A stretch of 64,000 bases of DNA, taken from positions 3,128-67,127 of the forward strand of contig JBEQAR010000004.1 of NCBI GenBank assembly GCA_041640295.1, read 5' to 3'. This DNA is from a bacterium (GTDB lineage: Bacteria; Patescibacteriota; Minisyncoccia; UBA6257; HR35). The notes beneath the pieces were generated by a model. That model searched no databases. It was not told where the DNA came from and worked only from the letters and a program-made list of their open reading frames with translations. Positions 10,536 to 39,310 of this stretch are shown here, piece after piece; position 1 is the first letter of the stretch, and every line of letters starts with the position of its first letter. Position numbers and translations under genes: made by a program.

Positions 10536-10537
10536 TT

Positions 10538-11197: not shown

Positions 11198-11207
11198 TAT
11201 CTATGTA

Positions 11208-11873: not shown

Positions 11874-11983
11874 TTTTATTTTATAATTTTATAATATTAA
11901 ATAATATTAAATTATAAAAATATTTCAAATTAATTCAAATAATCATAATTTATACTTGATTAAAAATTTTTTTTAACTAAGCT

Positions 11984-23143: not shown

Positions 23144-23219
23144 TTTTAATTTATAATTTTAATTCATTAATATTTAATTTGGTAAATAAAATTAAAAGAT
23201 ATTTTAACATATTGTAAAA

Positions 23220-23429
23220 ATGAAAAGCAAGATTCATCCTAATTATTTTAAAACAACAGTTAAATGTGCTTGTGGTCAAACTTATGAAGTATTTTCAACT
23301 GAAAAAGAAATAAATGTTGAAATTTGTAAAAATTGCTCGCCAATTTTTATTGGAACGGAAGAAAAAAAGGTAATTACAGGCCAAATCGAAAAATTTAATA
23401 GAAAATATAAAAATAAAAAATCTTCCTAA
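23220..23429 (+). CDS. rpmE: 50S ribosomal protein L31
   Basis: MKSKIHPNY start and CxxC...CxxC zinc motif. Confidence 0.9.
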   Translation: MKSKIHPNYFKTTVKCACGQTYEVFSTEKEINVEICKNCSPIFIGTEEKKVITGQIEKFNRKYKNKKSS

Positions 23430-23457
23430 ATAAAATTTTACTTTACTTATCTCTAAA

Positions 23458-24198: not shown

Positions 24199-24214
24199 AA
24201 TTTTATTATTTTTA

Positions 24215-24340
24215 ATGGGAGAAAAAGAAAAATTTTTATTAATAATCTATTATATTATCGCTATAATTTTTATTTGGTTGTTTACTGATCCAGAAATTTG
24301 GCGAACAATAATTAATTCAATTTCTAAACCTATAAAATGA
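24215..24340 (+). CDS. Possible small membrane peptide (41 aa) overlapping trxB start
   Basis: ATG..TGA ORF MGEKEKFLLIIYYIIAIIFIWLFTDPEIWRTIINSISKPIK with one TM. Not in the ORF track and no homology. Confidence 0.2.
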   Translation: MGEKEKFLLIIYYIIAIIFIWLFTDPEIWRTIINSISKPIK

Positions 24341-25254
24341 TTTATGAAAGTATTATTATAGGCTTATCAGCGGCAGGTATTAGTTCAGCTATTTATCTTA
24401 AGCGTCGAGGTATAAATTTTATTATTATTGGTAAAGATATCGGAGGCGAATTAGCTCTTTCTGGTATAGTTGAAAATTACCCGGGTTTTTTAAGAATAAC
24501 TGGTTTGGAATTAGCTAAAAAATTTAAAGAACATCTTAATTATTATGAAATTAATTTTTTATTAGAGGAAGCTAAATCATTAACAAAAGAGGATAATTTA
24601 TTTAATGTTATCACTAATAAAAATCAATATAAAACAAAATCAGTGATTATTGCTACCGGTGCTAAACCTAAAAAACTTAATATCCCTGGCGAGAACGAAT
24701 TTTATCATCGTGGGGTGAGTTATTGTAGTGTATGTGATTTACCTTTATTTAAAAATAAAACCGTAGCCTTAATTGGGGGAGGAAATTCTGTTTTAGAAGC
24801 TGGAATTATGGCTAGTAATATTTGTTCTAAAGCTTATGTAATTAATAAAAATCCAAAATTTAAAGGAGATCAAATTTTGGTTCAAGAATTATCAAAAAAA
24901 AATAATATTGAAATAATTTATAATGCTTTAACACAAGAAATTTATGGGGATAATTTTGTTAGAGGGATTAAATACTTAAATCAATTAACGCAGGAAATTG
25001 TCACCTTAGAAGTTGAGGGAGTTTTTATTCATATTGGTTTAAGGCCCAATAGCGAATTTGTTCCTGATAATTGGAATATTAAAAATGAATTGGGTGAAAT
25101 TATTGTGAATGAATTAGCTCAGACATCAATCGATGGTTTATTTGCTGCCGGTGATGTGACGAATATTCCTTATAAACAAATTGGGATTGCGGTAGGACAA
25201 GGAATTACCGCTGCTCTTTCTAATATTTCTTATTTAAATAAACTAAACACTTAA
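24337..25254 (+). CDS. trxB: Thioredoxin reductase-like FAD/NAD(P) disulfide oxidoreductase
   Basis: FAD-binding N-terminus, redox CSVCD (CxxC) and NAD(P)-binding GGGNSVLEAG. 305 aa. Confidence 0.75.
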   Translation: MIYESIIIGLSAAGISSAIYLKRRGINFIIIGKDIGGELALSGIVENYPGFLRITGLELAKKFKEHLNYYEINFLLEEAKSLTKEDNLFNVITNKNQYKTKSVIIATGAKPKKLNIPGENEFYHRGVSYCSVCDLPLFKNKTVALIGGGNSVLEAGIMASNICSKAYVINKNPKFKGDQILVQELSKKNNIEIIYNALTQEIYGDNFVRGIKYLNQLTQEIVTLEVEGVFIHIGLRPNSEFVPDNWNIKNELGEIIVNELAQTSIDGLFAAGDVTNIPYKQIGIAVGQGITAALSNISYLNKLNT

Positions 25255-26805
25255 TTTTTTTAATAAACTTTCTCCCTCCATTTCCGAAGGAATAGGTAAG
25301 TTTAATATTTCTAAAATAGTTGGAGCGATATCTATTAAACTGCCGATTATTTCTCTTTCTTTAAGGGTTAGATAATCTGGTTTAAGCTCAAAATAAAGCT
25401 TAGGATGAATAAGAAAACAAGGAACAGGACTAAAATCATGAGAAGTTTCAGGTTCTCCAGTTTGAATATCAATCATTTTTTCCAAATTTCCATGATCACT
25501 GGTAATAATTAAAAAGTAATCTTCATCTTTTATTACTTCATAAATTTGTTTTAAATAATCATTAATACCCTCAACGACCTTGATACCTAAATTAATATTT
25601 CCTGTATGAGCAATAATATCAGGAGCAGCATAATTGACAGCAATAAAATGATAAATTTTTTCCTGAATTGAATTAATTAAAATACTTGTAATTTCTTCTG
25701 ATTTTAATAAAGGATTTTCAGAAAAAGACAATTCAGAACTTGGTAAAATTTTCCAAAATTCGTTAGGATGTGGTTCGCGATATAAACCATTAAAATAATA
25801 AGTTAAATGATAAGCCTTTACTTTTTCTGCAATTTTTAATTGGGTAAGATTATTTTCAGAAATAATTCTTGATAAAGAAGTATTAATTTTACTTTTTTCA
25901 AATGCTACTGGGTAATCGATATCTTCAAAATATTTAACCATCGAAGCAATAAATAAATTCTTTTTTAATGGTCGAGGAAAATAATTGAATTCCGGATCAA
26001 GGAAAGCTTTAGCTAATTGATACATTCCATCCTCTCTAAAATTAAAAAAGAAAACAGCATCATTATCTTTAATAATTCCACCTTCATTGACAACCAATGG
26101 TTCTAAATTTTCATCTATGAAATCTTTGTTTTCGTTATAGATATCAGATAAAAATTTTTTATAGTCTTCTACTTTCCTTCCTCGCCCTTCAACAATAAGA
26201 TAAAAAGCCATTTCTGTTTTTACTTTCCAATATTCATTTTTGTCCATTCCATACGATCTACCAATAAGCGTGGCAATGTTTCCTACGCCGAGATTATTTA
26301 TTTCATTTTCTAAGTTTTTTAATAATGACAATCCTGATTGAGGTGGGCTATCTCTACCATCTAAAAATAGATGAAGGAATACTCTATTAAAATTATTTTT
26401 TTGGAAAAAATTTAGTAGAGCAATTAAATGTTCAAAAGAACTATGAACAATACCCTCAGTTAATAAACCAATTAAATGAACATTACTTGAATATTTTTCA
26501 CAATGCTCAATAAGTTTTTTGAGAATTGAATTGTCAAAAAAACTGCCGTTTCTAATTGCTAAAGTTATTTTAGGATAATTTTGATAATAAACCTTTCCGG
26601 TACCTAATGTTAAATGACCAACTTCACTATTGCCTTCTTCGCGCCAAGGAAGACCTACTGCAATTCCCGAAGCCTGTAGTTGGCAAAAAGGATAATGATG
26701 TTTTAAAAAATCGATAAAATCCTTTTTAGCTAAATGAATAGGATTTGAAAAATTTTCTTTGCCAATACCCCAACCATCTAAAATAATTAGAATCACTTTA
26801 GTCAT
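25243..26805 (-). CDS. gpmI: 2,3-bisphosphoglycerate-independent phosphoglycerate mutase
   Basis: 520 aa. N-terminal ILDGWGIG motif characteristic of iPGM. Confidence 0.9.
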   Translation of the reverse strand: MTKVILIILDGWGIGKENFSNPIHLAKKDFIDFLKHHYPFCQLQASGIAVGLPWREEGNSEVGHLTLGTGKVYYQNYPKITLAIRNGSFFDNSILKKLIEHCEKYSSNVHLIGLLTEGIVHSSFEHLIALLNFFQKNNFNRVFLHLFLDGRDSPPQSGLSLLKNLENEINNLGVGNIATLIGRSYGMDKNEYWKVKTEMAFYLIVEGRGRKVEDYKKFLSDIYNENKDFIDENLEPLVVNEGGIIKDNDAVFFFNFREDGMYQLAKAFLDPEFNYFPRPLKKNLFIASMVKYFEDIDYPVAFEKSKINTSLSRIISENNLTQLKIAEKVKAYHLTYYFNGLYREPHPNEFWKILPSSELSFSENPLLKSEEITSILINSIQEKIYHFIAVNYAAPDIIAHTGNINLGIKVVEGINDYLKQIYEVIKDEDYFLIITSDHGNLEKMIDIQTGEPETSHDFSPVPCFLIHPKLYFELKPDYLTLKEREIIGSLIDIAPTILEILNLPIPSEMEGESLLKKLSV

Positions 26806-26953
26806 AATTTTTAAATTAATATATAAAAATATTATTTTTAAATTATTTTTTTAAATCTCCTTATTAATCTCTATGTTATGTTATAATTTTAATATTAAAT
26901 TTAATTATAAGCACTAAAAATGAAGGCCGCAATTTTCTTCCCTAAACTAACAA

Positions 26954-28480
26954 ATGAATATTTATATTACTTTAGAAAAGATTATTATTTTTATCATTGG
27001 AATCCTTTTGGGGTTTTTAATCAGATATCTTTTAGCTTACTTCCAAGCTTCTTCTTTAGAATATAAATTAAAGCAGAAACTTGATGATCTTAAAAAGAAA
27101 GAGAAGGAAATAATTTTAAATGCCGAAAAGCAAGCTTTAGAAATATTAGAAAATTCTCGAAAAGAAAGAGAAAGTTTGATTAATGATTTAAGAAAAAGAG
27201 AAGAAAGATTAATTAATAAAGAAGTTATTTTAGAAAATAGAGAAAAAGAATTAGAATCAGAGAAAGAAAGAATTAAACTTAAACTACAAGAGTTAGAAAA
27301 CAAAGAGCAAGAAGTGACAAAACTAAAATTAGACTACGAGAGTCATTTAGAAAAAATTTCCGGTATTACTAAAGAAGAAGCTTTAGATTTACTTTTTCAG
27401 AAAATAGAAAAAGAAAATGAGCAATTGCTATTACAAAAAATTTCTAAGCTAATTAATAATCAAAAAGAAGAAATAGAGAAAAAAGCTAATGAAATTATTG
27501 TTCAAGCTTTACCTCGTTATAGTCGATCGGTAGCTAATGAAATTAATTTAAGTGTTGTTTCCTTACCAAGTGAAGAAATGAAGGGTAGAATTATTGGTAA
27601 GGAAGGTAGAAATATTAGATATTTTGAAAAATTAAGTGGAGTGCAAATAATCATTGATGAAACACCAGAGATTGTTACTTTGTCTTCTTTCGATCCGATT
27701 AGACGAGAAATAGCTAAAATTGCTTTAGAAAAGTTAGTACAAGATGGAAGAATACACCCCTCATCTATTGAAGAAGCTCTCCTGTGGGCAAAAGATAAAA
27801 TTGAAGAAGAAATAAAAAACGCTGGTAAAGATTCAGCCTTCGAGCTTGGTATTTTAGATTTACCCGAAGAAATTTTGCATTTAATGGGGCGGTTGAAATT
27901 TAGATATAGTTATGGTCAAAATGTTTTACAACACTCAATTGAAGTTGCAATCTTTTCCAGAATGATTGCTGAAGAATTGAAATTAGATGCCGAAACTGCA
28001 AAAAGAGCAGGATTTTTGCACGATATAGGTAAATCAGTCAGTCATGAAATAGAAGGTTCACATCTAGAAATTGGAATTAAAATTTTAGAAAAATATAATA
28101 TTGATGAAAAAATTATTTTAGCTATGAGATCTCACCATGAAACATACCCATTTGCTATTCCTGAAGCTTATATTGTTTTAGCTGCTGATGTAATTTCCTC
28201 TAAAAGATTAGGTGCTCGTTCTGAAACTTTGGAAGCTTATCTCCAGAGATTAGAAAACCTTGAAAAAATAGCTTTAAGCTTTAAAGGTGTGGATAAAGCC
28301 TATTCAATAAGTGGAGGAAGAGAAGTTTGGGTTTTTGCTAGATCTGATGAGGTAAGTGATTTAGAAATGGTAAAATTAGCCCAAAATATAGCAAAAAAAA
28401 TAGAGGAAAATCTTAAATATCCAGGAGAAATTAAAGTAGTAGTTATTCGAGAAAGTAGGGCAATAGAATATGCTAAGTAA
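26954..28480 (+). CDS. rny: Ribonuclease Y
   Basis: N-terminal TM, coiled coil, KH domain (GRIIGKEGRNIRYFE), HD domain (LHDIGK). 508 aa. Confidence 0.9.
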   Translation: MNIYITLEKIIIFIIGILLGFLIRYLLAYFQASSLEYKLKQKLDDLKKKEKEIILNAEKQALEILENSRKERESLINDLRKREERLINKEVILENREKELESEKERIKLKLQELENKEQEVTKLKLDYESHLEKISGITKEEALDLLFQKIEKENEQLLLQKISKLINNQKEEIEKKANEIIVQALPRYSRSVANEINLSVVSLPSEEMKGRIIGKEGRNIRYFEKLSGVQIIIDETPEIVTLSSFDPIRREIAKIALEKLVQDGRIHPSSIEEALLWAKDKIEEEIKNAGKDSAFELGILDLPEEILHLMGRLKFRYSYGQNVLQHSIEVAIFSRMIAEELKLDAETAKRAGFLHDIGKSVSHEIEGSHLEIGIKILEKYNIDEKIILAMRSHHETYPFAIPEAYIVLAADVISSKRLGARSETLEAYLQRLENLEKIALSFKGVDKAYSISGGREVWVFARSDEVSDLEMVKLAQNIAKKIEENLKYPGEIKVVVIRESRAIEYAK

Positions 28481-28548
28481 TCTTTTAAATTTAAATATTT
28501 TGCTTTATAATCTTTATTGAGGTCGAATTAATATTAAATAAACAAAAA

Positions 28549-28839
28549 ATGGCAAGTCAAAACACAGTAAAAAGAGAAGCTTTGGCTCAAAAAATCGCCG
28601 AAAAATTTGATTTACCCAAAAAAACAGCGGTCGAAATATTAAATTATTTTGTTGAATTGGTTTCTTCCAATCTTAAATCAGGTAACAAAGTTAAATTGCC
28701 AGGTTTAGGAACTTTTAAGGTTAGAGAAAGAAAGGCAAGAACCGCTATTAATCCAAAAACAGGCGAAAAAATTACTGTTCCTGCTACACGCGTTCCTAAA
28801 TTTACTCCAGCAAAAGAATTAAAAGCATTATTTAAATAA
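28549..28839 (+). CDS. hup: DNA-binding protein HU
   Basis: 96 aa. GLGTFKVRERKARTAINPKTGEKI arm motif. Confidence 0.9.
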   Translation: MASQNTVKREALAQKIAEKFDLPKKTAVEILNYFVELVSSNLKSGNKVKLPGLGTFKVRERKARTAINPKTGEKITVPATRVPKFTPAKELKALFK

Positions 28840-28924
28840 ACAATTAAAATTAAACCTCTTATTAGTGGAAAATATAATTCTATATCAAGATTTTTTAATG
28901 TTGTTAAAATTATTTTGAGATAAA

Positions 28925-29023
28925 ATGGTTAAAAAGGAAAGTAAATCTAATATTTTTTTGATAATACTTATCGTTGTGATTATTTTAGGAATGATTTTAA
29001 GTTCATTAGCTTTTATTTTTTAA
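28925..29023 (+). CDS. Possible small hydrophobic peptide (32 aa), not in the ORF track
   Basis: ATG...TAA ORF encoding MVKKESKSNIFLIILIVVIILGMILSSLAFIF with a single TM-like helix. No homology support. Confidence 0.2.
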   Translation: MVKKESKSNIFLIILIVVIILGMILSSLAFIF

Positions 29024-29070
29024 TTATATTAATAAAAAATTATATTAATGTGTGAGAATTATTAAATAAA

Positions 29071-29637
29071 ATGGCAGGAATAAAAAATGACGAATGGATA
29101 AAACATATGGCTAAAAAGCATAAAATGATTGAACCTTTTGTTGAAAAGCTTGTTTCCAAAGGCAAAGTTTCTTATGGTCTTTCAAGTTATGGTTATGATA
29201 TGAGAGTTGCTGATGAGTTTTATATTTTTCATAACGCTTATCCAACTGAAGTTATTGATCCTAAAAATGCTAAAGAAAGTTACTTTATTAGACATAAAGG
29301 TAAGGTTTGTATTATCCCTCCCAATTCTTTTGTTTTAGCTAGATCAGTTGAATATTTTCGAATTCCAAGAAATGTTTTGGGTATTGTTTTTGGAAAATCA
29401 ACTTATGCCCGCTGTGGGATTATTGTTAATGTGACCCCATTAGAGCCAGAATGGACTGGAACGCTGGTTATAGAAATCTCTAACACAACACCTCTGCCAG
29501 CTAAAATTTATGCTAATGAGGGAATCGCTCAAGTGATATTTTTAGAAGCTGATGAACCCTGCAAGGTTTCTTATGCTGATCGCAAAGGAAAATATCAAAA
29601 ACAAAAAGGCATAGTTTTACCAAAAGTAATTAAATAA
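29071..29637 (+). CDS. dcd: dCTP deaminase
   Basis: 188 aa, length and overall pattern consistent with dCTP deaminase. Confidence 0.85.
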
Positions 29638-29649
29638 AAGTCGGCCATT

Positions 29650-29825
29650 AAATCAACCGCGAACTAGTGCAAACGGCGATAATAAACGCGAACCAATGCG
29701 AACAAGTGAGTATAATCACTACCCATGCAAACAAACAAAAGTTCGCAGGAGTTCGCGTGAAACCTTACCTGACGCCCGCCTATCTGGCGGACAGGGCAGG
29801 CAGAGTTTGCAGTAGTTCGCATTAT
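29650..29825. repeat. GC-rich palindromic repeat element: left arm RCGAAC units, right arm GTTCGCR units (intergenic copy)
   Basis: Left arm has ccgcgaac, gcaaac, acgcgaac, gcgaac, gcaaac. Right arm has gttcgca, gttcgcg, gtttgca, gttcgca. Central GC palindrome gcccgcc...ggcggac. GC far above the flanking ~28%. Confidence 0.7.
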
Positions 29826-29835
29826 ATTATCAAAA

Positions 29836-30225
29836 ATGGAATTTATCTTCCTTCTTTCAAGACTTATTCTTGGTCTTTATTTTTTATTTAATGCTTTTAA
29901 TCATTTTACAAAATTAGCTATGCTTGCTGAATATGCTAAAAGTAAAAATGTTCCAATGCCAAAATTGGCTGTTATATTTACGGGTTTTCTTTTATTAATT
30001 GGAGGCATTTCAATTTTGTTAGGAATTTATATAGAAATAGGAGTTTTAGCTTTAACTATATTCTTTTTACCAGTAACTTTTATAATGCATAATTTCTGGC
30101 AAATTCAAGATCCGCAAATGAAAATGATGGAAATGATAAATTTTTCAAAAAATATAGCAATTTGGGCAGGAGTTTTACTTTTACTTTTTGTTCCTCAACC
30201 TTGGATTTATTCGTTGGGCTGGTAA
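29836..30225 (+). CDS. DoxX family membrane protein
   Basis: 129 aa. Four TM helices, DoxX-like LILGLYFLFNAFNHF. Confidence 0.65.
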   Translation: MEFIFLLSRLILGLYFLFNAFNHFTKLAMLAEYAKSKNVPMPKLAVIFTGFLLLIGGISILLGIYIEIGVLALTIFFLPVTFIMHNFWQIQDPQMKMMEMINFSKNIAIWAGVLLLLFVPQPWIYSLGW

Positions 30226-30264
30226 ATTTAATTCGGAATTAGTTCTCAATATTATCAAGAAAAA

Positions 30265-30684
30265 ATGATAATCAAAAAATTAAATAACAACAATTATCTT
30301 TTACGGATTGAACCCAACGAAGAATTATTCGGTTCGCTTTTAAATTTTGCCCAAAAACACAAAATTAAGTCAGGATTTTTCTATGGTATTGGTGCTTGTA
30401 AAACTTGTATAATTGGAAGATATAATGAGAAGAAAAAAGATTATGATTGGAAAAAAATTAAACAGCAAATGGAGATCGGTAGTTTAATTGGTAATTTAAC
30501 TTATAAAGAAGGGCATTACTATTTACATATTCACACTGTTTTTGGAGATAAAAATTTAAAAACTTTGTCAGGACATTTAAAAGAACTTATAGTTTTTCCA
30601 ACTTGTGAGATAATGTTTTTTGCTTTTGATAAGAAAATTGAAAGAAAATATGACAAATTAACAAATCTGTTTTTGATTGGGTAA
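30265..30684 (+). CDS. PPC (DUF296) domain protein
   Basis: LRIEPNEEL...GIGA...YLHIHTVFGD...SGHLKELIVFPTCEI pattern typical of PPC/DUF296. Confidence 0.55.
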   Translation: MIIKKLNNNNYLLRIEPNEELFGSLLNFAQKHKIKSGFFYGIGACKTCIIGRYNEKKKDYDWKKIKQQMEIGSLIGNLTYKEGHYYLHIHTVFGDKNLKTLSGHLKELIVFPTCEIMFFAFDKKIERKYDKLTNLFLIG

Positions 30685-31133
30685 TGTTATCAAAAATAGA
30701 TCAATTTATAATCAGAACCCTACAAAAAATCTGGAGACCATTAGCAAAAATTTCTATCTTTATTATTTTCTTTTATTTTGGGTTTTTGAAAGTTCTGGGC
30801 TTAAGTCCAGCTAATCCTTTAGTCTCAGCCCTACTTCAGCAAACTATTGATTTTGTTCCTTTTGAAAAATTTGTTATTCTTTGGGGATTTTTTGAAATGC
30901 TTATTGGTTTAACATTTATTACTCCCAGATTAGAAAGAATAGCAATTTTTCTTTTATTACTTCATATGATTATAGTTGCTTTACCATTAATATTACTTCC
31001 TCAAATTACTTGGCAGAAATTCTTAGTTCCAACATTAGAAGGTCAATATATAATTAAAAATTTAGCTATAATTTCTTTAGCTTTAGTTATTGGCGCTCAT
31101 TTAAAAAATAACCAAGATAAAATTTTTAAATAA
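30684..31133 (+). CDS. Hypothetical integral membrane protein
   Basis: 149 aa. Four predicted TM helices. Translationally coupled to the upstream ORF. Confidence 0.4.
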   Translation: MLSKIDQFIIRTLQKIWRPLAKISIFIIFFYFGFLKVLGLSPANPLVSALLQQTIDFVPFEKFVILWGFFEMLIGLTFITPRLERIAIFLLLLHMIIVALPLILLPQITWQKFLVPTLEGQYIIKNLAIISLALVIGAHLKNNQDKIFK

Positions 31134-31165
31134 AAATTTATTAAATTTATTAAATTGAAAATTAT

Positions 31166-32110
31166 ATGGAAAAATTTTTACAAGAATTCAAATTACAATT
31201 TCAATTCAAACCAGTAATAGAAAATTTAAATAACTTTAAAGGTAAAAACAAATTCTTAATCGTTGGGATGGGTGGTTCTCATTTAGCAGCTGATTTATTA
31301 AAAATAACCCATCCCTTTTTAGATTTAACTATCATTAGTGATTTTAATTTACCTCAATTGTCAGATTTATTAGAAAGGAAAATTATTTTAATTTCTTATT
31401 CTGGAAATACTTTAGAAACTATTAATGCTTTGCAAAAATTAGAACGAACCAAAATTAAACCTTTGATGATTTCAGCTAATGGCTTACTCTTAGCTCGAGC
31501 GAAAATTAATAAATATCCTTATATTGAATTACCAGAGAAAAATTTACCACCTAGATTAGCGATTGGTTATCTTTACTTAAGTCTATTAAAAGCTATTAAT
31601 GATGAGAATTCTTTAAAAAAGATTAGTGGAGACTTAATAAAATTTAATTTTTCAAAAATTCAAAAAAGAGCTTTAACCTTGTCATTGAAATTGAAAGGAA
31701 AAATTCCTATTATTTATTCATCTTTTATTAATTATCCGTTGGCTTATAATTTTAAAATAAGATTTAACGAAACAGCGAAAATTCCAGCTTTTTGCCATTA
31801 TTTACCCGAAGCGAATCACAATGAAATTCAGGGTTTTTATAGGTTGAAAAAAATTTTTTATTTTTTGCTATTAGAAGATAAAACAGACTCTAAAGAATTA
31901 ATAGCAACATTCAAAACAATTAAGAAATTTTTAAAAGATAAAAAATTTTTTGTTGAAAGTTTAACTCTTGATGAAAAAGATGTATTTAAAAAAATTTTTT
32001 CAGCAATTCATTTAGCGGATTTGTTAAGTTTTTATCTAGCGAAAATTTATAAGTTAGATCCATTATCTACACCATTTATTGATGAAATTAAAAAAAGATT
32101 AAAAATTTAA
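31166..32110 (+). CDS. SIS-domain bifunctional phosphoglucose/phosphomannose isomerase-like protein
   Basis: IVGMGGSHLAADLLK SIS motif. 314 aa. Directly upstream of the glucokinase. Confidence 0.55.
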   Translation: MEKFLQEFKLQFQFKPVIENLNNFKGKNKFLIVGMGGSHLAADLLKITHPFLDLTIISDFNLPQLSDLLERKIILISYSGNTLETINALQKLERTKIKPLMISANGLLLARAKINKYPYIELPEKNLPPRLAIGYLYLSLLKAINDENSLKKISGDLIKFNFSKIQKRALTLSLKLKGKIPIIYSSFINYPLAYNFKIRFNETAKIPAFCHYLPEANHNEIQGFYRLKKIFYFLLLEDKTDSKELIATFKTIKKFLKDKKFFVESLTLDEKDVFKKIFSAIHLADLLSFYLAKIYKLDPLSTPFIDEIKKRLKI

Positions 32111-33273
32111 TGGGATTTTTCTTAGGCGACATTGGCGGAAGTAAAACAAGATTGATTTTTCTTGATTCAGAGAAAGATTTAAAAAAGCAAAATTTGAAAA
32201 TTTTTAAAACCCCTCAGAAGTATAAAGAATTTTTGGAATTATTAAGAAATGAGTATGTGGTACGAATTAATAGAAACCACAATAAACTAATACAAACAGA
32301 TAAAAATACTAACAATAATCGCGACTCTATACAAAAAAATAAAGTTCGCATCAATTTGCGTGAAAGTTCGCAATGGTTTGCGGCAAAGAAAACGAGAAAG
32401 ACTGTTTTTGGGTTTGCAGGTATGCTTGATGAAAAGAGAGAAAAATTAATTTATGCTCCGAATTTAAAAGATTTTGAAAATAAAAATTTAAAAAGAGATT
32501 TAGAAAAAATCTTGGAAACAGAAGTTATTTTAGAAAATGATGCTACTTTAGCTGGTTTAGGAGAAGGGAAATACGGAGTAGGTAAAAATTTTGATGTTTT
32601 TGGATATATAACTTTGTCAACAGGAGTAGGAGGCGCAAAAATTGTTAAGACGCGAACTAATACGAACTATAGCGAACTGATGCGAATAGATACTACAACA
32701 CGAACGGATACGAACAATGATAATAACCACGAACCAATACGAACAAATAATAGTTTATATGAGTTCGCGCCTAATGATAATGTTCGCAATAGTTCGCGAG
32801 AAAGTTCGCAATGGTTCGCGGTTGATATAAATAAATTTGGTTTTGAGCCTGGACACTCTTTTTTGTTATTAACGCAGACAGCCGCGGACTTAACGCAGAC
32901 ACTCTTTAACAATGTTCGCGGCAGTTCGCGTATAGTTCGCGGTAGTTGGCGTAAAAACTTATTTGAGATCGAAGAACTGCTTGGTGGAGAAAATATTGAG
33001 AAAACTTTTGGTAAAAAACCTGAAGAGATAAAAGACAAAAAATTTTGGAACTTTTATCATCAAATTCTTTCAATTTTTTTAATCAATGTTTCAATTTTTT
33101 GGTCTGTTGATAAAATAATTTTAGGCGGCGGAATTACAAAAAGTTTAGATTTTAAAAAATTAAATTCTCTAGTGAACAAACTCCACCCCTTGCCGATAAA
33201 AATACAAATAATAAAATCAAAACTCGGTGAAATGAGTGTTTTATATGGAGGATTAGTAAGGAGCGGTATCTAA
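32110..33273 (+). CDS. glk: ROK-family glucokinase carrying two in-frame GC-rich repeat insertions
   Basis: ROK motifs MGFFLGDIGGSKTRL, ENDATLAGLGE, GYITLSTGVGGA, ILGGGI. Two insert segments of about 45 aa and about 100 aa encode low-complexity peptide, including a duplicated RESSQWFA. Confidence 0.7.
   Translation: MGFFLGDIGGSKTRLIFLDSEKDLKKQNLKIFKTPQKYKEFLELLRNEYVVRINRNHNKLIQTDKNTNNNRDSIQKNKVRINLRESSQWFAAKKTRKTVFGFAGMLDEKREKLIYAPNLKDFENKNLKRDLEKILETEVILENDATLAGLGEGKYGVGKNFDVFGYITLSTGVGGAKIVKTRTNTNYSELMRIDTTTRTDTNNDNNHEPIRTNNSLYEFAPNDNVRNSSRESSQWFAVDINKFGFEPGHSFLLLTQTAADLTQTLFNNVRGSSRIVRGSWRKNLFEIEELLGGENIEKTFGKKPEEIKDKKFWNFYHQILSIFLINVSIFWSVDKIILGGGITKSLDFKKLNSLVNKLHPLPIKIQIIKSKLGEMSVLYGGLVRSGI
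32265..32400. repeat. GC-rich GTTCGCR-type repeat element, in-frame insertion 1 in glk
   Basis: Right part has gttcgca, tttgcgt, gttcgca, gtttgcg. Left part has degenerate caaac/aacaa units. Confidence 0.6.
32650..32960. repeat. GC-rich inverted tandem-repeat element, in-frame insertion 2 in glk
   Basis: Left arm is 8 copies of RCGAAC spaced by a ~10-bp period (with two ~18-19-bp lapses). Right arm is 5 copies of GTTCGCR at 10-12 bp spacing (one ~19-bp lapse), then ttaacgcagaca x2, then 3 more GTTCGCG at 10-11 bp. Arms are reverse complements. Confidence 0.75.
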
Positions 33274-33318
33274 TTTACGCTATTTTTAAATTTTCACAAT
33301 TTATTTTATAATTAATCT

Positions 33319-33540
33319 ATGTCAAGAATAATTTTTGACCCAAAGATTTTAAGAGGGAAGCCGATTATTAAAGGAACAAGAATTTCTGTTGATTTAATTT
33401 TGGAACTTTTGGCTAATAATTGGTCAATTGAAGATATTTTAAAACAATATCCCCAACTAAAAAAACAAGACATTCTCGATGCTTTAAAATATTCTGCTAA
33501 GAGAATTAAGAGAGAAGAAACTATTTTAATTTCTAAATGA
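33319..33540 (+). CDS. DUF433 family putative antitoxin
   Basis: 73 aa. FDPKILRGKPIIKGTRISVDLILELL matches the DUF433 signature. 4-nt overlap with downstream ORF. Confidence 0.65.
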   Translation: MSRIIFDPKILRGKPIIKGTRISVDLILELLANNWSIEDILKQYPQLKKQDILDALKYSAKRIKREETILISK

Positions 33541-33857
33541 AATTTCTTTTGGATGAAAATATTCCTTTTGAACTTCAAAATTATTTAGCAAAATATAAAA
33601 TTTCAAGCTCTCATCTTTTAGGTTTGAAACTGAAAGGACTAAGCGATGAGGAAGTTTTCGATTATGCACAGAAAAGAAAATTTATAATAATTACTTTCGA
33701 TAAGGATTTCTTAAATGAGAAATTTTATACCCAATCCCATTACGGAGTAATTTATATTTCACCTAAAATCAAAGATTTAGATAAATTAGCAGAAGCAATT
33801 TTTAAAACGATTAAAAGTTATAAAAGTTTTAAAAACAAAGTTGTTATTATTCAATAA
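33537..33857 (+). CDS. DUF5615 (PIN-like, Mut7-C-type) putative toxin
   Basis: MKFLLDENIP start and acidic PIN-like residues. Canonical partner of DUF433. Confidence 0.6.
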   Translation: MKFLLDENIPFELQNYLAKYKISSSHLLGLKLKGLSDEEVFDYAQKRKFIIITFDKDFLNEKFYTQSHYGVIYISPKIKDLDKLAEAIFKTIKSYKSFKNKVVIIQ

Positions 33858-33926
33858 AGATAAGCTTTGACAAAATTAGAATTTAATATGAGGCTTTTTA
33901 ATAGCCTAAGGGCTAGCGGTTAGTTT

Positions 33927-33998
33927 CGGGCTGTGGTGCAGTGGAAGCACGCTGGCTTCGGGTGCCAGAGGTCGTGGGTTCAAATCCCACCAGCCCGA
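33927..33998 (+). tRNA. tRNA-Pro (anticodon CGG)
   Basis: Manual fold: acceptor CGGGCTG/CAGCCCG (7 bp), D-arm GTGC-AGTGGAA-GCAC, anticodon arm CTGGC-TTCGGGT-GCCAG (anticodon CGG, G37), T-arm GTGGG-TTCAAAT-CCCAC, discriminator A. No encoded CCA. Confidence 0.85.
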
Positions 33999-34021
33999 AA
34001 AGAATATGTTAAAATATCAAA

Positions 34022-34432
34022 ATGACTGCTTTGGCTTTAATTTTTACTTTAGCGGCAATTGGAATTAGTGAAACTGTTTATCTTATTCGCAAAAGAATTG
34101 CTTCGGAAAAACCTGTTTGTATTTTAGGTGAAGATTGTGTAACTGTTTTAACCAGCAAATATAGTCGATTATTTATTATTCCCAATGATGTTTTAGGTTT
34201 TTTAGCGTATATTGTTATTGCAACAATTTCAGCATTTTTAGTAATTGGCGTTGAACCAATTTATTTTTGGAGTCTAATTCTTAAAATTCTAGTCTTTGTC
34301 GCTTCATTAATATCTCTTTTATTTACTTATCTTCAGTGGCGTGTTATTAAAGCTTGGTGTTTTTGGTGTTTAATGTCAGCTTTTACGATTTGGCTAATGG
34401 GTGTTATAATATTAGCAAGCCCAACAATTTGA
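34022..34432 (+). CDS. VKOR (vitamin K epoxide reductase) family disulfide-forming membrane protein
   Basis: 136 aa with several TM helices. Loop Cys pair CILGEDC and TM CxxC (WCFWCL) typical of bacterial VKOR. Confidence 0.55.
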   Translation: MTALALIFTLAAIGISETVYLIRKRIASEKPVCILGEDCVTVLTSKYSRLFIIPNDVLGFLAYIVIATISAFLVIGVEPIYFWSLILKILVFVASLISLLFTYLQWRVIKAWCFWCLMSAFTIWLMGVIILASPTI

Positions 34433-34449
34433 GAATAAAGCTAATAGTT

Positions 34450-35700
34450 TTACAGACCAACTTCGTGGGGAAGGTTATTTAAAATAAACTCCTGTGGTTT
34501 TTCTGTAAAAATAATTCTTTTACCTAAACATTGAGCAAAACCGATTTCTAAGAGAGCCGAAGCTCCTACATATCCATCTGGATCACAAACTATTAAAGCA
34601 TCTGAGTTAGCAATTGAGTTTAAATGATAACGTTCTAATTCTAAAGGAGATAAACCTTCTTCGCCAGTGAAAATAACAAATTCTTCTCCAGGATTTTTAG
34701 GTTCGACAAACCTCGGACTAAGAACTTTTACACCTTTATTTTCTAATTCCTCTTTGATCTTTAAAATATAATCCAAATGTTTTCTAAAGCTTCCGCTCAA
34801 AGTTACATATCTAAATTCTTGTCTAATAACGCCATTTATCAAATTTGAATCAGAAGGAATAATTTTTTCAATATTATACTCTTCGCAGATAGCTTGAGCG
34901 ATTCCTGAAAAAGCTCGAGCTCCATGCATCCATTTAGGGTTATCAGGCATCAATCCTTCTAATTCTTTTAAAGTTATTTTTTCGTATATTTCCTTATTTT
35001 TATTTTTATAATCTTTTAAATCAATTAAGAATGGATGATCTTCGTCTTCAAATAAATAGTTTTTTCTTAATGGATAATTTGCTAATTTCATATAAGTTAA
35101 TTCTCCTCCTGAAAGAAAGGCTATTTTTGGTTTATTCTCTAAAGGAACAAGTTTCTGTTTTACATAACTCACAATCTCTTCTAATTTTATTTTTGAAATC
35201 TCCTCATTAATTTCTGGGAATTCAGTTAAAATTGTACCAACTCCTAATTCTAAATTTTTTCTTTCAATTGCCTCATTACCGTACATTATTACTAGTTCAG
35301 TTGTTCCTCCTCCAATATTAATCAAAAGGATCGGCTCATCAAGGTGACACTTTCCTATTAAAGCTTTTTCTAAATAAAAATTCTCTAAATCTTGAGAAAT
35401 AATATTGAAGTATAAACCTGTTCTTAAGAAGACTTCATCAATGAAGGATACTTTAGTTTGCGGAGATAACTTCCGAAAAATACCTGTAGCATAGATTTTA
35501 ATTGGGATGTTAGGATGTTGGGCTTTAACTGCGTCTAAAAGTTCAAAAAGTTCCTTTTTATTTTCTGGAGATATTCCTCCTTCGGGATCAAAACCTTCTT
35601 TAAAAAAGAGTGAACGCTGCATGTGGAGCTCCAATCTTTGTTTTGAATATTTATAAACCTTTACCGTTGAAGAACCTATATCTAAAAGAATTTTTTCCAT
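34450..35700 (-). CDS. Ppx/GppA-family phosphatase fused to a nucleoside 2-deoxyribosyltransferase-like C-terminal domain
   Basis: N-terminal ASKHA fold LLDIGSSTVKVY...INIGGGTTEL. C-terminal ~110 aa with DPDGYVGASALLEIGFAQCLGKRII resembling the NDT-like Rossmann motif. Confidence 0.5.
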   Translation of the reverse strand: MEKILLDIGSSTVKVYKYSKQRLELHMQRSLFFKEGFDPEGGISPENKKELFELLDAVKAQHPNIPIKIYATGIFRKLSPQTKVSFIDEVFLRTGLYFNIISQDLENFYLEKALIGKCHLDEPILLINIGGGTTELVIMYGNEAIERKNLELGVGTILTEFPEINEEISKIKLEEIVSYVKQKLVPLENKPKIAFLSGGELTYMKLANYPLRKNYLFEDEDHPFLIDLKDYKNKNKEIYEKITLKELEGLMPDNPKWMHGARAFSGIAQAICEEYNIEKIIPSDSNLINGVIRQEFRYVTLSGSFRKHLDYILKIKEELENKGVKVLSPRFVEPKNPGEEFVIFTGEEGLSPLELERYHLNSIANSDALIVCDPDGYVGASALLEIGFAQCLGKRIIFTEKPQEFILNNLPHEVGL

Positions 35701-35888
35701 TTGTTTGTTTTGCGAAAATAGACGACTTTTAATATTTAATTTTAATTTATAATTTAGACCACGATAGACTCCACCTTAAGATGTTCTAAAACTTTTATAA
35801 CATAAAACCCCCTATGTCAAGCTTCTTATATTTGAATATTAGGTTATAACCTCTATAATATAATTAAGTATTTAAATTAAGTATTTAA

Positions 35889-36269
35889 ATGACAAAAGCA
35901 GGGTTTCATATTTTAAGGGTTGGATTAGGGATAACATTTTTGTGGATTGGGGTTTTGATTTTTAAGCAGCCTGAAGCTTGGGGAGGATATTTAAAACCTT
36001 GGGCAGCTGGTCTTTTGCCTGTTCCTCTTTCGCAAGCAATGATAGGCACCGCAATTTTAGATATTGTTATAGGTTTTTTATTTCTTGTCGACACTTTTAC
36101 TTGGTTAGCCTCACTACTTGCAACTATTCATCTTATCATTGTTTTAACTGTTAGTGGTATCACTGATATAACTGTAAGAGATATAGCTATTTTAGCTGGC
36201 GCGATAGCAGTTTTACTTGATTCCTTACCGCAAAAGTTTCTTGACAAATTTAAAATTTTTAAAAAGTAA
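35889..36269 (+). CDS. Hypothetical membrane protein
   Basis: 126 aa. Predicted TM helices. No domain recognised. Confidence 0.4.
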   Translation: MTKAGFHILRVGLGITFLWIGVLIFKQPEAWGGYLKPWAAGLLPVPLSQAMIGTAILDIVIGFLFLVDTFTWLASLLATIHLIIVLTVSGITDITVRDIAILAGAIAVLLDSLPQKFLDKFKIFKK

Positions 36270-36310
36270 AGTATAATTGATACAAGTCGTCATTAACTAA
36301 ATAAAATTCT

Positions 36311-36847
36311 ATGAAAAATAAAATTCCTATAATCACTATAGCCGTCGGTTTAGTTATTATTTTAGGGTTTGCTGGTTATTACTTTTATAAAAAATCTACC
36401 CCTAGCCCAACACCAGAATTTCAAATTTCTCAACCACTTCAACCATCAGAAGAGGTTCAGCCACTACCAGAAGTAACACCTCCAGCTCCAACTGAACCTA
36501 CAGCAACTCCTTCATCCGAAGTTCAACCCCCAACCCAAAATGTTGTTATTTATACTGACTCTGGTTATTCGCCAAGTACTTTAAGAATCAAAGTTGGAGA
36601 AACTGTTACATTCAAAAATCAAAGCTCTCAAGCAATGTGGCCAGCTTCTGCTATGCATCCAAGCCATACAGTCTATAGTGGTACTTCTTTAGATGAACAT
36701 TGTCCTGATACAGCGGGAATAGCTTTTGATGCTTGTACTGGAATTCAACCAGGTAATTCTTGGAATTTTACCTTTAACAAAAAAGGAAGCTGGAAATACC
36801 ACGACCATCTAAATCCTTCATTTACCGGTACAATTATTGTTGAATAA
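36311..36847 (+). CDS. Secreted/membrane-anchored protein with Pro/Thr-rich linker and cupredoxin-like domain
   Basis: N-terminal TM or signal, PT-rich low-complexity linker, then beta-rich domain. TLRIKVGETVTFKNQS resembles the cupredoxin strand 1 pattern. His/Cys residues present but the ligand set is not canonical. Confidence 0.35.
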   Translation: MKNKIPIITIAVGLVIILGFAGYYFYKKSTPSPTPEFQISQPLQPSEEVQPLPEVTPPAPTEPTATPSSEVQPPTQNVVIYTDSGYSPSTLRIKVGETVTFKNQSSQAMWPASAMHPSHTVYSGTSLDEHCPDTAGIAFDACTGIQPGNSWNFTFNKKGSWKYHDHLNPSFTGTIIVE

Positions 36848-36849
36848 CA

Positions 36850-37719
36850 ATGAAGAAAATTATTTTTACTTTATCCCTTCTCTTTTTATTTAATTATCTT
36901 AATCAATTTACTTTTGCACAAGAAATCAATCTATCTCGTGATTTATATCTTGGTTTAAAAGGAAAAGATATAGAATTTTTGCAACAATTTTTAGCTAATG
37001 AAGGTGTTTATCCAGAAAAATATATCACTGGTTACTTTGGTCCTTTAACTAAAAAAGCAGTTATTAGATTTCAACAAAAATACAATATCTTTCCTCAACT
37101 TGGTTATGTTGGTCCCAAAACAAGAGCAAAGATTAACGAATTAATTTTACAAACAAAGTCAACAAAATCTTGTCCGACTATCGCACTTGATACCTCTAAA
37201 GGCAAAGAAGAATGTTTAAAATCAGCTGAATATCTTAATAAGATATATCCTGGATGTAATTATGCAAAAATATGTGAAGCAACTTCTTACCAAAAACCAT
37301 TTTTAGATTGTGGTCCAGCTCCAGGAGCGCCAGGAACTTGGAGATGTATTGATGGTATTTGGAAAAATATTAGTCAATGTGGAAAAATTCAATGTATCAG
37401 ATACGATCCAGTTTGTGGTACTGATGGTAGAACTTACGCTTGCGGAGAAGCTGATGCTGAATCTTGCGGTGTAGAAGTAGCTTACAAAGGAGAATGCAAA
37501 AAACAAGAATATCCAGCTCCGCCTCTTCCTAAGGAACGACCAGCAACATCATCAAAAAGTGTTCCAGCTCAAAGATTGCCTCAACCAATTTTCTGCACTC
37601 AAGAATGGAATCCAGTTTGTGGAGTAGATAATAAAACCTATTCTAATGAATGTATGGCAAGAGCAGCTGGCGTTGAAGTTAAATATAAAGGTGAGTGTCA
37701 ATCGACAATGAGTCGTTGA
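36850..37719 (+). CDS. Secreted protein with peptidoglycan-binding domain and two Kazal-type inhibitor domains
   Basis: Signal peptide. PG_binding_1-like LKGKDIEFLQQFL...GYFGPLTKKAVIRFQ. Two Kazal signatures, C-x(5)-PVCGTDGRTYA-C...C and C-x(5)-PVCGVDNKTYSNEC...C. Confidence 0.65.
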   Translation: MKKIIFTLSLLFLFNYLNQFTFAQEINLSRDLYLGLKGKDIEFLQQFLANEGVYPEKYITGYFGPLTKKAVIRFQQKYNIFPQLGYVGPKTRAKINELILQTKSTKSCPTIALDTSKGKEECLKSAEYLNKIYPGCNYAKICEATSYQKPFLDCGPAPGAPGTWRCIDGIWKNISQCGKIQCIRYDPVCGTDGRTYACGEADAESCGVEVAYKGECKKQEYPAPPLPKERPATSSKSVPAQRLPQPIFCTQEWNPVCGVDNKTYSNECMARAAGVEVKYKGECQSTMSR

Positions 37720-37736
37720 TTTTAAATATTTTATAA

Positions 37737-38180
37737 ATGGAAACAAAAACACATTATCCTTTAATCAGAACAATTTATCTTTATATTTTTGCTCTTTTGG
37801 GTTTGGTTCTTCTAATTGTTGGCAGCGTACGGTTTTTGGATATGGCTCTTAGGGCCTTTGTTTTTACTGCGGCTGAAAAAGAGGAAAGATTATGGAGTAA
37901 ACAACCTCCATTTCCGCCAATAGAAATAGCAAAGATTGGCAGAGTCGAAGGCGAAAAATTGTCTCCCAAAGAAGAAGTTAATCTTTCTAATGAAGAAAAA
38001 GCAATAATTGATAACTGGATTATTCAGTATAATAATTGGCGTGAAGAACGAGCTAAGATTGACCCGGTAACTTCAAGAAGACATCGAGAAGCATCTTTAA
38101 ATTTAGCTTTTATTCTAATAGGGTTGCCCTTATATCTCTATCACTGGTCTATAATCAGAAGAGAAACAAAAAAACAATAA
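37737..38180 (+). CDS. Hypothetical membrane protein
   Basis: 147 aa, two predicted TM helices. No domain recognised. Confidence 0.35.
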   Translation: METKTHYPLIRTIYLYIFALLGLVLLIVGSVRFLDMALRAFVFTAAEKEERLWSKQPPFPPIEIAKIGRVEGEKLSPKEEVNLSNEEKAIIDNWIIQYNNWREERAKIDPVTSRRHREASLNLAFILIGLPLYLYHWSIIRRETKKQ

Positions 38181-38355
38181 ATAATTTATAAAAATTGTCG
38201 CTTATTCTTATAAAAATTTATTAAAGAAGCTATTATTTTTCATAATTAATTTTTAGAAATAACATAAAAAACAAAATAATCTTAAATAAAAACTTGAGGA
38301 GTTAATTAAAAAGAAAGTGGTTTCAAAAATAAAGCTAAAAATTTATTAGCAAGTT

Positions 38356-38577
38356 ATGTTAATAAAAGTAAAAGTTTTCCCAAATTCAAAAGAAGAGATA
38401 ATAATTAAAAAATCTGAAGATAGTTTTGATGTTAAAATAAAAGAAAAATCTGAAAGAGGATTAGCTAATAAAGCAGTTATCAAAATTTTATCTTCTTATT
38501 TTAAGATTCCAATATCACAGATAAAATTAATTAAAGGCGCAAAACAAAGAAATAAAATTTTTGAGATAAAAATTTAA
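38356..38577 (+). CDS. DUF167 (YggU/UPF0235) family protein
   Basis: 73 aa. VKVFPNSKEEII...GLANKAVIKIL...IKLIKGAKQRNKIFEI matches DUF167 conservation. Confidence 0.5.
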   Translation: MLIKVKVFPNSKEEIIIKKSEDSFDVKIKEKSERGLANKAVIKILSSYFKIPISQIKLIKGAKQRNKIFEIKI

Positions 38578-38584
38578 TAATACT

Positions 38585-39310
38585 ATGAAACTTTATATCG
38601 TAGCAACGCCGATTGGGAATTTAAAAGATATAACCTTAAGAGCTTTGGAGGTTTTAAAATCTGTTAATTATATTGTTTGCGAAGATACAAGAAGAACAAA
38701 AAAATTATTAGATCATTATGGAATTAAAAATAAAAAATTAATTTCTTATTTTGCACCCCGAGAAGAAGAGAAGATTCCTTTGATTTTAAAAATTTTAGAA
38801 AAAGAAAATGTTGCCTTAGTTGTTGATGCGGGAATGCCGGGAATTTCTGATCCTGGTTATAAATTAATTAAGGCTTGTTTAGAGAAAACGCGGATTTACG
38901 CGGATATGACGAAAGATAATCAGCGTCTATCAGCGTCGAATCAGCGTGAATCAGCGTTAATAGAAATAGAGGTTTTACCGGGACCATCAGCATTTTTAAC
39001 TGCTCTTATTGGTTCAGGACTGCCAACTGATAAATTTTTATTTTTAGGATTTCTACCGAAAAAGGGATTAGAAAATTATTTAAGTAAATTTGAAAATTTA
39101 GAAGCAACAATAATTTTCTATGAATCGCCCCAAAGAATTCCAAAAACTTTAGATGTTATTGAAAAAGTTTTTGGAAATGTTGATATTGTTATTGCCCGCG
39201 AAATCTCGAAAATTTATGAGGAATATATAAGAGGAAAATTAAGCGAAATCAAAGAAAAATTAAAAAACAAAAAATTAAAAGGAGAACTAACTGTTATTTT
39301 TAGAAAATAG
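38585..39310 (+). CDS. rsmI: 16S rRNA (cytidine1402-2'-O)-methyltransferase with in-frame repeat insertion
   Basis: MKLYIVATPIGNLKDITLRALEVL...VCEDTRRT and PGISDPGYKLI motifs. About 24 extra aa (RIYADMTKDNQRLSASNQRESALIEI) sit between the KACLEKT and EVLPGPSAF blocks that are contiguous in E. coli RsmI. Confidence 0.85.
   Translation: MKLYIVATPIGNLKDITLRALEVLKSVNYIVCEDTRRTKKLLDHYGIKNKKLISYFAPREEEKIPLILKILEKENVALVVDAGMPGISDPGYKLIKACLEKTRIYADMTKDNQRLSASNQRESALIEIEVLPGPSAFLTALIGSGLPTDKFLFLGFLPKKGLENYLSKFENLEATIIFYESPQRIPKTLDVIEKVFGNVDIVIAREISKIYEEYIRGKLSEIKEKLKNKKLKGELTVIFRK
38885..38962. repeat. GC-rich inverted tandem-repeat element (ATCAGCGT type), in-frame in rsmI
   Basis: Left arm ACGCGGAT x2. 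Right arm ATCAGCGT x4 at 10-11 bp period. Arms are near reverse complements (ATCCGCGT vs ATCAGCGT). Confidence 0.7.

Follow-up and report, generated by a model that had tools for sequence, protein, structure and literature searches.

Candidate foldback-type repeat elements inserted in frame in a glucokinase gene of hot-spring-type Parcubacteria

The glucokinase gene (glk) of a bacterium of the Patescibacteriota carries three in-frame insertions made of short CpG-containing words that recur about once per helical turn. The gene lies in a 64,000-nucleotide stretch of contig JBEQAR010000004.1 (assembly GCA_041640295.1, positions 3,128 to 67,127), referred to as the window in the rest of the paper, to which all coordinates apply unless another contig is named. 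With further copies in the window and in related genomes, these insertions constitute a multi-copy, polar, periodic and hairpin-capable family whose members are gained, lost and replaced between near-identical genomes of its host clade, the hot-spring-type Parcubacteria, and which is tolerated in frame inside loops predicted to be disordered. We propose, and rate at an even chance, that this DNA represents a foldback-type, non-autonomous and hypervariable element family, which the host proteins accommodate as disordered loops that are translated. Palindromic or foldback repeat elements located in frame are a kind already known; the present family is apparently undescribed.

Results

The glucokinase gene is interrupted by three in-frame insertions

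The glk open reading frame (ORF) matches the ROK family in Pfam (E = 1.1e-18) and stays open across the whole repeat region, confirming that the repeats are inserted in frame in a ROK glucokinase. The 675 homologues that were found have as their nearest named members proteins annotated as Candidatus Parcubacteria. Orthologues are mostly 265-280 aa long compared to 387 aa here, and the three inserts make up most of this excess of about 110 aa. A preliminary description made from the sequence had flagged a single element of about 310 bp at 32650-32960. We aligned the glk protein with 19 orthologues and counted the aligned residues in each segment. At the positions of insertions 2 and 3, about 3 residues are present in most orthologues, whereas the 17 residues of the block VDINKFGFEPGHSFLLL that lies between them all align in 18 of the 19 orthologues, and its EPGH motif is nearly invariant. 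Because this conserved block splits the 310 bp, the flagged segment corresponds to two insertions of 58 and 29 aa rather than to one element (Table 1). The GC content, given before as about 50% throughout, is 40% in insertion 2, 25.5% in the conserved block and 53% in insertion 3, compared to 27.8% for the window; CpG density across 32647-32955 reaches 9.4 per 100 bp versus 1.4 across the window.

Insertion 2 is a complete two-armed element bounded by the termini ACGCGAAC and GGTTCGCG. Its left arm (32653-32744) contains eight copies of CGAAY (32653-32740) at spacings of 10, 10, 10, 18, 10, 19 and 10 bp, and its right arm (32763-32820) five copies of GTTCG(C) (32763-32814) at spacings of 19, 10, 12 and 10 bp, which is the arrangement of eight and five copies with two lapses and one lapse that had been described. 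The predicted RNA fold of the element (−51.7 kcal/mol, z = −4.9 against shuffled sequences) is the long imperfect hairpin anticipated for such inverted arms. Insertion 3 begins with the words ACGCAGAC, CCGCGGAC and ACGCAGAC (32872-32901), continues with a right arm spanning 32914-32951 that comprises three copies of GTTCGCG (32914, 32924 and 32935) followed by GTTGGCG (32945), and has a 21-bp dimer period. The two copies of TTAACGCAGACA reported previously are present, at 32869 and 32890, as are the three GTTCGCG words reported after them; these words, however, form the right arm of insertion 3 and do not continue that of insertion 2.

The insertions flagged in glk are thus real, but insertion 1, a decayed copy located upstream, had been overlooked. 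Its left arm is eroded to the AT-rich words ACGAAT, AGAAAC, ATAAAC and ACAAAC with the 10-bp period kept, and its right arm (32341-32388) reads GTTCGCA, TTTGCG, GTTCGCA and GTTTGCG. Only 2-20 of 43 residues of this segment align in the orthologues. The right arms of insertions 1 and 2 share 84% identity across 45 nt. In an AlphaFold model of the protein, residues 51-93, 183-233 and 239-285, which coincide with the inserts, have predicted local distance difference test (pLDDT) scores below 50; since the model is weak overall (mean pLDDT of 58), we regard these scores as supporting evidence only.

Directly downstream of glk, a DUF433 / DUF5615 (PIN-like) gene pair at 33319-33857 probably constitutes a toxin-antitoxin module; it is followed by a tRNA-Pro(CGG) gene at 33926-33999.

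Table 1. Location of the glucokinase gene, its insertions and the other copies found in the window
Feature	Position	Strand	Remarks
ROK-family glucokinase (glk) ORF, 387 aa	32110..33273	+	hosts three insertions
Insertion 1	32254..32394	+	aa 49-95 of glk; decayed copy
Insertion 2	32647..32820	+	aa 180-237 of glk (58 aa); complete two-armed element
Conserved glucokinase block VDINKFGFEPGHSFLLL	32821..32871	+	residues 238-254; 25.5% GC; belongs to no element
Insertion 3	32872..32958	+	aa 255-283 of glk (29 aa); second element
Intergenic copy, dcd-doxX	29655..29825	.	ends 10 nt before the doxX start codon
rsmI in-frame copy	38878..38966	+	rsmI of 241 aa; insert-free orthologues of 219-220 aa

Independent assemblies carry the same insertions

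The region was recovered from NCBI (GCA_964468575.1), Logan (SRR34065980, SRR3961742 and SRR34066068) and ENA (ERZ27314177 and ERZ1669417). Window positions 19071-34413 are 99.96% identical in contigs L124 (NCBI), L125 (Logan) and L126 (ENA), glk shows no differences at all, and the exact 387-aa protein is encoded on six contigs. Because independent assemblies from different samples carry an identical glk, the inserts are not an assembly artefact, and we consider it very improbable that the flagged segment is a chimera or a collapsed repeat. What could be held in favor of such an origin is the behavior of two short-read contigs: the 937-bp Logan contig P0001 terminates within insertion 2 with the reading NDNVRNGSR, which amounts to a collapsed 22-bp unit, and contig L128 ends within the dcd-doxX intergenic copy. 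These breaks show that short-read assemblers do stumble at the arrays.

The elements share a word grammar rather than a sequence

All elements are composed of 6- to 8-nt CpG-containing words (general forms ACGCRRAC and CGRAN) placed every 10-11 bp and separated by spacers of 2-5 nt. Spacings pooled from 18 arrays were 10 bp (22 times), 11 bp (18 times), 9 bp (6 times) and 12 bp (4 times), in addition to double steps of 19-22 bp. Two-armed elements without exception place every copy of the word ahead of the first copy of its reverse complement. The word itself differs from one element to another while the arms stay complementary (CGAAC/GTTCG, CGAAT/ATTCG, CGGAT/ATCCG, CGGAA/TTCCG and CCGAA/TTCGG); CGCAGAC is another element-specific word. 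Given a left arm of words and a right arm of reverse complements, the elements end in 5'-ACGC...GCGT-3', and inverted ends of the form 5'-ACGCxxAC...GTxxGCGT-3' were observed in insertions 2 and 3, in the rsmI copy, and in an mnmA element and an intergenic element of the relatives L131 and L132, respectively (see below). The arms are unequal, with 8 versus 5 units in insertion 2 and 9 versus 5 in an element of the relative L133. Some elements are nested and others are one-armed remnants. Strong folding was also predicted for the dcd-doxX copy (−67.8 kcal/mol, z = −6.1) and for a glk element of the relative L003 (−70.1 kcal/mol, z = −7.4), which sets the range of z over the elements at −4.9 to −7.4.

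All six in-gene length differences that we recorded are multiples of 3 (21, 24, 27, 87, 93 and 162 bp). In the frame used, the inserts contain no stop codon, insertions 2 and 3 included, compared to 1-12 stop codons in the other sense frames. Both features speak against the inserts being removed from the RNA and, as properties of the reading frame, imply that the in-gene inserts are translated; NSSRESSQWFAVDINK is an example of the peptide that would then be expected.

Similar word grammar was seen in an unrelated lineage. Contigs L015, L086, L102 and L103 (about 29-33% GC; L015 belongs to a Cloacimonadota metagenome-assembled genome) contain a repeated element about 120 bp long that is conserved; it opens with five words (CGCGAAC / ACGAAC) spaced 10-11 bp apart, and its terminal tail contains GTTTG / GTTCGCG; L102 has two adjacent copies. 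Perfect tandem arrays were also found on low-GC contigs, namely about 10 copies of CGCGAACCAA at 3592-3700 of L089, preceded by a GGTTCGCAATGCATTGCGAACC palindrome, and about 7 copies of CGCGAACCGAT at about 8300-8370 of L164.

Additional copies are present in the window

The words are far more frequent in the window than expected by chance: GTTCGCR occurs 20 times, compared to 2.3 expected and to a maximum of 7 in 100 shuffles, and 21 chains of 5-mers at 9-12 bp spacing, nearly all in glk and rsmI, compare with 2.1 in Markov simulations. Five copies of one architecture were identified, three in glk, one in rsmI and one in the dcd-doxX intergenic region, in agreement with the prediction that glk would not be the only site.

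The dcd-doxX copy has a left arm of CGCGAAC, GCAAAC, CGCGAAC and GCGAAC and a right arm of GTTCGCA and GTTCGCG followed further on by GTTTGCA and GTTCGCA. It is sequence-identical in other assemblies, and its site is empty in the relatives L130 and L001. A possible ATTAATC-like duplication flanks it, in AT-rich surroundings that make it ambiguous. This copy also contains a GC-rich mini-hairpin (about 29766-29806), an example of a second kind of insert of 21-24 bp with the form CCTGCC...GGCAGG or GCCCGCC...GGCGGAC. Other mini-hairpins lie at 10479-10499 of L132, 10362-10388 of L001 and 10151-10174 of L133, in each case in frame inside glk, whereas that of the window is inside an intergenic word-array element. 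The 21-bp glk mini-hairpin is present in L132 and L133 and precisely absent from L131.

The rsmI copy consists of two ACGCGGAT words followed by four ATCAGCGT words with a period of 10-11 bp. The 241-aa rsmI allele that carries it was found in three further contigs. Within the same population, L124 and L126 have a 272-aa allele in which this position is occupied by another array, longer by 93 bp, whose words are CGCAGACA on the left and two GTTCGCG and one GTCTGCG on the right. Both alleles recur across independent assemblies. Between 34413 and 38944, the window is either unalignable with L124 and L126 or only 92.6% identical (36536-37866), and the alignment returns to 99% from 38944, a point within the rsmI array; 34413-38944 is thus a strain-variable segment of different gene content with its right boundary in a repeat array.

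Arrays differ between close relatives at otherwise conserved sites

Most glk orthologues have no inserts, or have different arrays in the same loops. At the site of insertion 2, KatS3mg097 and one Logan relative carry 2-3 copies of CGAAT followed by 6-7 copies of ATTCGG. At that of insertion 3, the JGI relative L003 carries seven copies of CGAAC followed by five of GTTCG, and four different contents occupy this loop in four relatives of which the flanks are about 95% identical. These comparisons bear out the expectation that the segments would be non-ancestral, and it is very unlikely that they represent an ancestral domain of this glucokinase lineage. The proteins P0002, P0003 and P0007 do carry an insert at the insertion 2 loop, as such a domain would predict; however, their inserts use the different word CGAAT/ATTCGG and yield unrelated peptides, most orthologues have 3 residues at the site, and the inserts are predicted to be disordered.

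We surveyed insertions and deletions by aligning syntenic 20-kb loci of L131 and L132 (96% identity) and of L132 and L133 (92% identity). Within syntenic genes, several of the largest length differences correspond to word arrays or GC-rich hairpins. Differences of whole arrays between these 92-96% identical genomes range from 21 to 257 bp and affect glk, tmk, mnmA and intergenic DNA. L131 and L132 differ by a 162-bp mnmA element (ACGCAGAC twice, then GTCCGCGT / GTCTGCGT four times), by a 27-bp tmk array (four copies of AATCCGCGT) and by the 21-bp hairpin CCTGCCTTGTCGGCAGGCAGG in glk. The absence of the tmk array from both L132 and L133 implies that it was gained in L131. L132 and L133 differ by a 150-bp nested intergenic element, with GCAGAC / GTCCGCG as outer words and CCGAAT / ATTCGG as inner words, and by a 257-bp element of nine ACGGAT followed by five ATCCG; L133 has an additional 24 bp and 87 bp in glk. 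HR35 and KatS3mg094 have further arrays in murD-like, pyrG and glk genes. Overall, copies beyond the window were found in glk, tmk, mnmA, a murD-like gene, pyrG, the end of a P-type ATPase gene and intergenic DNA of at least six related genomes, and presence/absence polymorphism at otherwise conserved sites was seen at several loci. A suspected insertion in LigA, indicated by two Pfam stretches, proved on inspection to be normal-looking sequence.

The intergenic element of L132 is flanked by a possible 7-bp duplication, TGATAAT, where the empty site of L133 has a single TTAAAAT. No target duplication was evident for the mnmA element, the tmk array or the 21-bp glk hairpin. At four of five empty sites (L132, L133 and L130), no more than about 12 bp separate TTTTAAAA from the insertion point, compared to a background of 2-5%; we do not claim a target preference because three of these sites are located just upstream of start codons, where the motif is perhaps usual.

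Discussion

A proposed foldback-type family and the points that weigh against it

If the arrays are foldback-type elements, then elements or short seed units would enter AT-rich DNA, and slippage or unequal exchange would then lengthen and shorten their arms one unit at a time. Formation of a hairpin or cruciform could promote these changes and keep the arms complementary; alternatively, complementarity could be kept by a requirement for two matching ends. Old copies would be eroded by AT-biased mutation, as may have happened to insertion 1. Within genes, the only copies to survive would be stop-free ones in surface loops whose length is a multiple of 3, and their translation would yield disordered hydrophilic loops. 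From the spacing of one helical turn, we suspect that a putative trans-acting DNA-binding protein, which could be a transposase, recognizes the words along one face of the duplex.

Several observations weigh against this proposal. Copies from different loci never resemble each other over the entire element: when 13 elements were compared by BLAST with all related loci, no whole-element paralogues emerged, and matches between loci were confined to arm segments of 18-38 nt. Classical families of MITEs (transposable elements of the miniature inverted-repeat type), on the other hand, have many homogeneous copies. Pfam detected neither a transposase nor an integrase domain in the ORFs of the window or in the annotated flanks of related loci. 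The AT-rich flanks make target duplications ambiguous, TGATAAT in L132 being the only reasonably convincing one, and the mnmA and tmk cases look like replacements of 13-24 bp rather than simple insertions. The one-armed arrays of tmk, L131 glk and HR35 glk cannot form hairpins. Replacement at the same site could equally be explained by rapid turnover in place. Lastly, three scans of sequence collections were swamped by GC-rich tandem repeats and provided no genome-wide copy number. The scan of genome contigs for four CGAAC words returned, among the matches listed, mostly GC-rich genomes, Streptomyces, Chloroflexota and Myxococcales among them, and no Parcubacteria, and those of metagenome and viral contigs for three CGCGRAC words had median locus GC of 0.67 and 0.61, respectively, the matches being mostly perfect tandem repeats with a period of 9, 10 or 11 bp. 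When insertions 2 and 3, translated in six frames and concatenated, were searched as peptides against 5.8 billion proteins, the only match was their own fragment P0001, since matches that are short and degenerate are unable to become significant.

A bolder version of the proposal is that the propagating unit is the 10-11-bp CpG word itself and not a fixed element, which would make the arrays selfish or hypermutable DNA of a new class, found in Parcubacteria; we put it forward tentatively, as rather less probable than its opposite. Words would then act as seeds at AT-rich sites, multiply until they form complementary foldback arms, nest, and be replaced within populations by a structure- or protein-guided mechanism with no described bacterial counterpart. 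If so, new disordered peptide loops would continuously be written into essential enzymes as a by-product. To a similar degree, there is a substantial chance that the underlying mechanism is new.

Alternative explanations

The main rival explanation is that the arrays are locus-bound, minisatellite-like repeats which emerge and are remodelled at their own locus through replication slippage and hairpin-templated repair in permissive loops, with no transposition involved. We think it unlikely, although it stands well ahead of the two alternatives considered below. It would readily account for the different arrays at the same site in close relatives, for words that are homogeneous within an array and differ between arrays, and for the lack of whole-element copies elsewhere, of a transposase in the window and annotated flanks, and of a clean target duplication. 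However, slippage alone leaves unexplained why unrelated loci and genomes have a common word family, period and arm polarity (5'-ACGC...GCGT-3'), how two-armed or nested elements of 150-257 bp appear de novo at sites that are empty in 92-96% identical relatives, and why insertions 1 and 2 have in common a 45-nt arm of 84% identity.

The dominant period of 10-11 bp, which places the words on one helix face, also brings to mind functional protein-binding sites, either of the ParR/parC or iteron type or for nucleoid organization. Some partition sites have inverted arms, and by analogy those observed here might be read in the same way. Yet four of the five copies in the window lie inside the ORFs of housekeeping genes (glk and rsmI), the scanned ORFs of the window and the annotated flanks showed no par-like genes, words and lengths vary radically between strains of one population, and insertion 1 shows that copies decay to AT-rich sequence. 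Binding sites are therefore improbable, and the analogy to ParR-type centromeres drawn in the preliminary description is not supported. No more probable is a role of the hairpins in RNA, either as stabilizing or regulatory mRNA structures or as intervening sequences that are excised and re-ligated. Folding is indeed strong compared to shuffled sequences, and the window encodes an Archease (PF01951) at 16524-16910, a protein that is normally a cofactor of the RNA ligase RtcB. Nevertheless, excised segments need be neither multiples of 3 nor stop-free in one frame, and it is on this evidence that we rejected the idea of excision prompted by the Archease gene; moreover, one-armed arrays do not fold and Rfam provided no match.

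Comparison with known systems

The elements matched nothing in Rfam, whether at the gathering threshold or at E ≤ 1, nor in plasmid and phage collections, and we found no published description of such a family in a literature search of incomplete coverage; for this last reason its novelty, already suspected in the preliminary description, is probable rather than proven. Closest in behavior are the Rickettsia palindromic elements (RPEs), families of sequence-conserved copies of about 100-150 bp. Like them, the present elements are short palindromic repeats of a small AT-rich genome with predicted hairpins, found in frame and stop-free in permissive loops of housekeeping genes as well as in intergenic DNA. 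Unlike RPEs, they share only a word grammar, range from 21 to 257 bp, are replaced between strains and reside in Parcubacteria. The resemblance noted earlier thus extends to behavior, which was compared by description; family membership is unsupported, as copies at different loci are unlike as wholes, cannot be aligned over their whole length, and occur in a Parcubacteria-like host.

Closest in architecture are the Foldback (FB) transposons of Drosophila, whose arms are made of 10-bp subrepeats, and related Mutator/Foldback elements. Both FB and the present elements have inverted arms of short tandem subrepeats, unequal and variable in length, and fold back as a whole. FB elements, however, are eukaryotic, kilobase-scale, associated with transposase genes and flanked by 9-bp target duplications, whereas those described here are bacterial, 50-260 bp long and have no transposase that we could find in the window or annotated flanks. 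Membership is again unsupported. An example of the Mutator/Foldback-related elements is Tm1 (PMC3169594).

Bacterial MITEs, repetitive extragenic palindromes and bacterial interspersed mosaic elements (REP/BIME) and Correia elements are likewise small, non-coding, bounded by inverted ends, and intergenic or occasionally genic (reviewed in PMC10969869), but they have homogeneous copies and single terminal inverted repeats in place of arms of periodic words that are specific to each locus. The mobile GC clusters of yeast mitochondria and the hairpin inserts of hairworm mitochondrial genes (PMC10380579) are also GC-rich or palindromic, reside in very AT-rich genomes and in some cases interrupt coding sequences in frame; they differ in being organellar, lacking the 10-11 bp word periodicity and having unrelated sequences. 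ParR/parC centromeres and iterons contain short repeats spaced by roughly a helical turn and in some cases arranged in two arms, but are conserved, non-coding and located beside partition or replication genes, while the present arrays are hypervariable, lie inside chromosomal ORFs and have metabolic or translation genes as neighbors. TIGR arrays (TIGR-Tas, PMC12045711) are another case of short-period repeats with Parcubacteria among their hosts. Their unit of 36 nt is made of two alternating repeats of 8-12 nt and 9-nt spacers, and the arrays are non-coding and found beside a tas gene coding for a Nop-domain protein (PMC12045711). We rejected this identity given the single 6- to 8-nt word, the 10-11 bp period and the absence of any Nop or Tas match.

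Implications

Rickettsia palindromic elements are the classic bacterial example of selfish DNA inside essential protein-coding genes. If our reading of the arrays as foldback-type elements is correct, bacteria of the Candidate Phyla Radiation (CPR) would provide a second, architecturally different system, in which tiny, gene-dense genomes repeatedly tolerate such DNA. Sampled loci have about 2-5 arrays per 20 kb, from which a genome of 0.6-0.7 Mb would by extrapolation contain tens to perhaps a hundred copies. The arrays would also constitute a natural experiment on the origin and decay of new disordered protein segments. Hypervariable loci of this kind would be useful for strain tracking, and short-read assemblies and protein-length statistics of CPR bacteria are liable to be distorted at array sites. 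Helical-turn spacing and the covariation of the arms pose a concrete and testable question of mechanism.

Other features of the window and of related loci

In the window, the region 9768-13489 encodes an ATPase resembling type IV secretion coupling proteins (TrwB / TraG matches, 11984-13489), beside which lie three ORFs of 218-254 aa on the opposite strand with no Pfam match. Among related loci, the dcd gene of HR35 (7316-9148 of L374) codes for a 610-aa protein with a faint LAGLIDADG match, which suggests that it carries an intein, and an 815-aa ORF of L130 (5271-7718) has faint intein matches. L131 and L132 encode a 1154-aa helicase-topoisomerase fusion (14990-18454 in L131) that is reverse gyrase-like, which would suggest thermophily.

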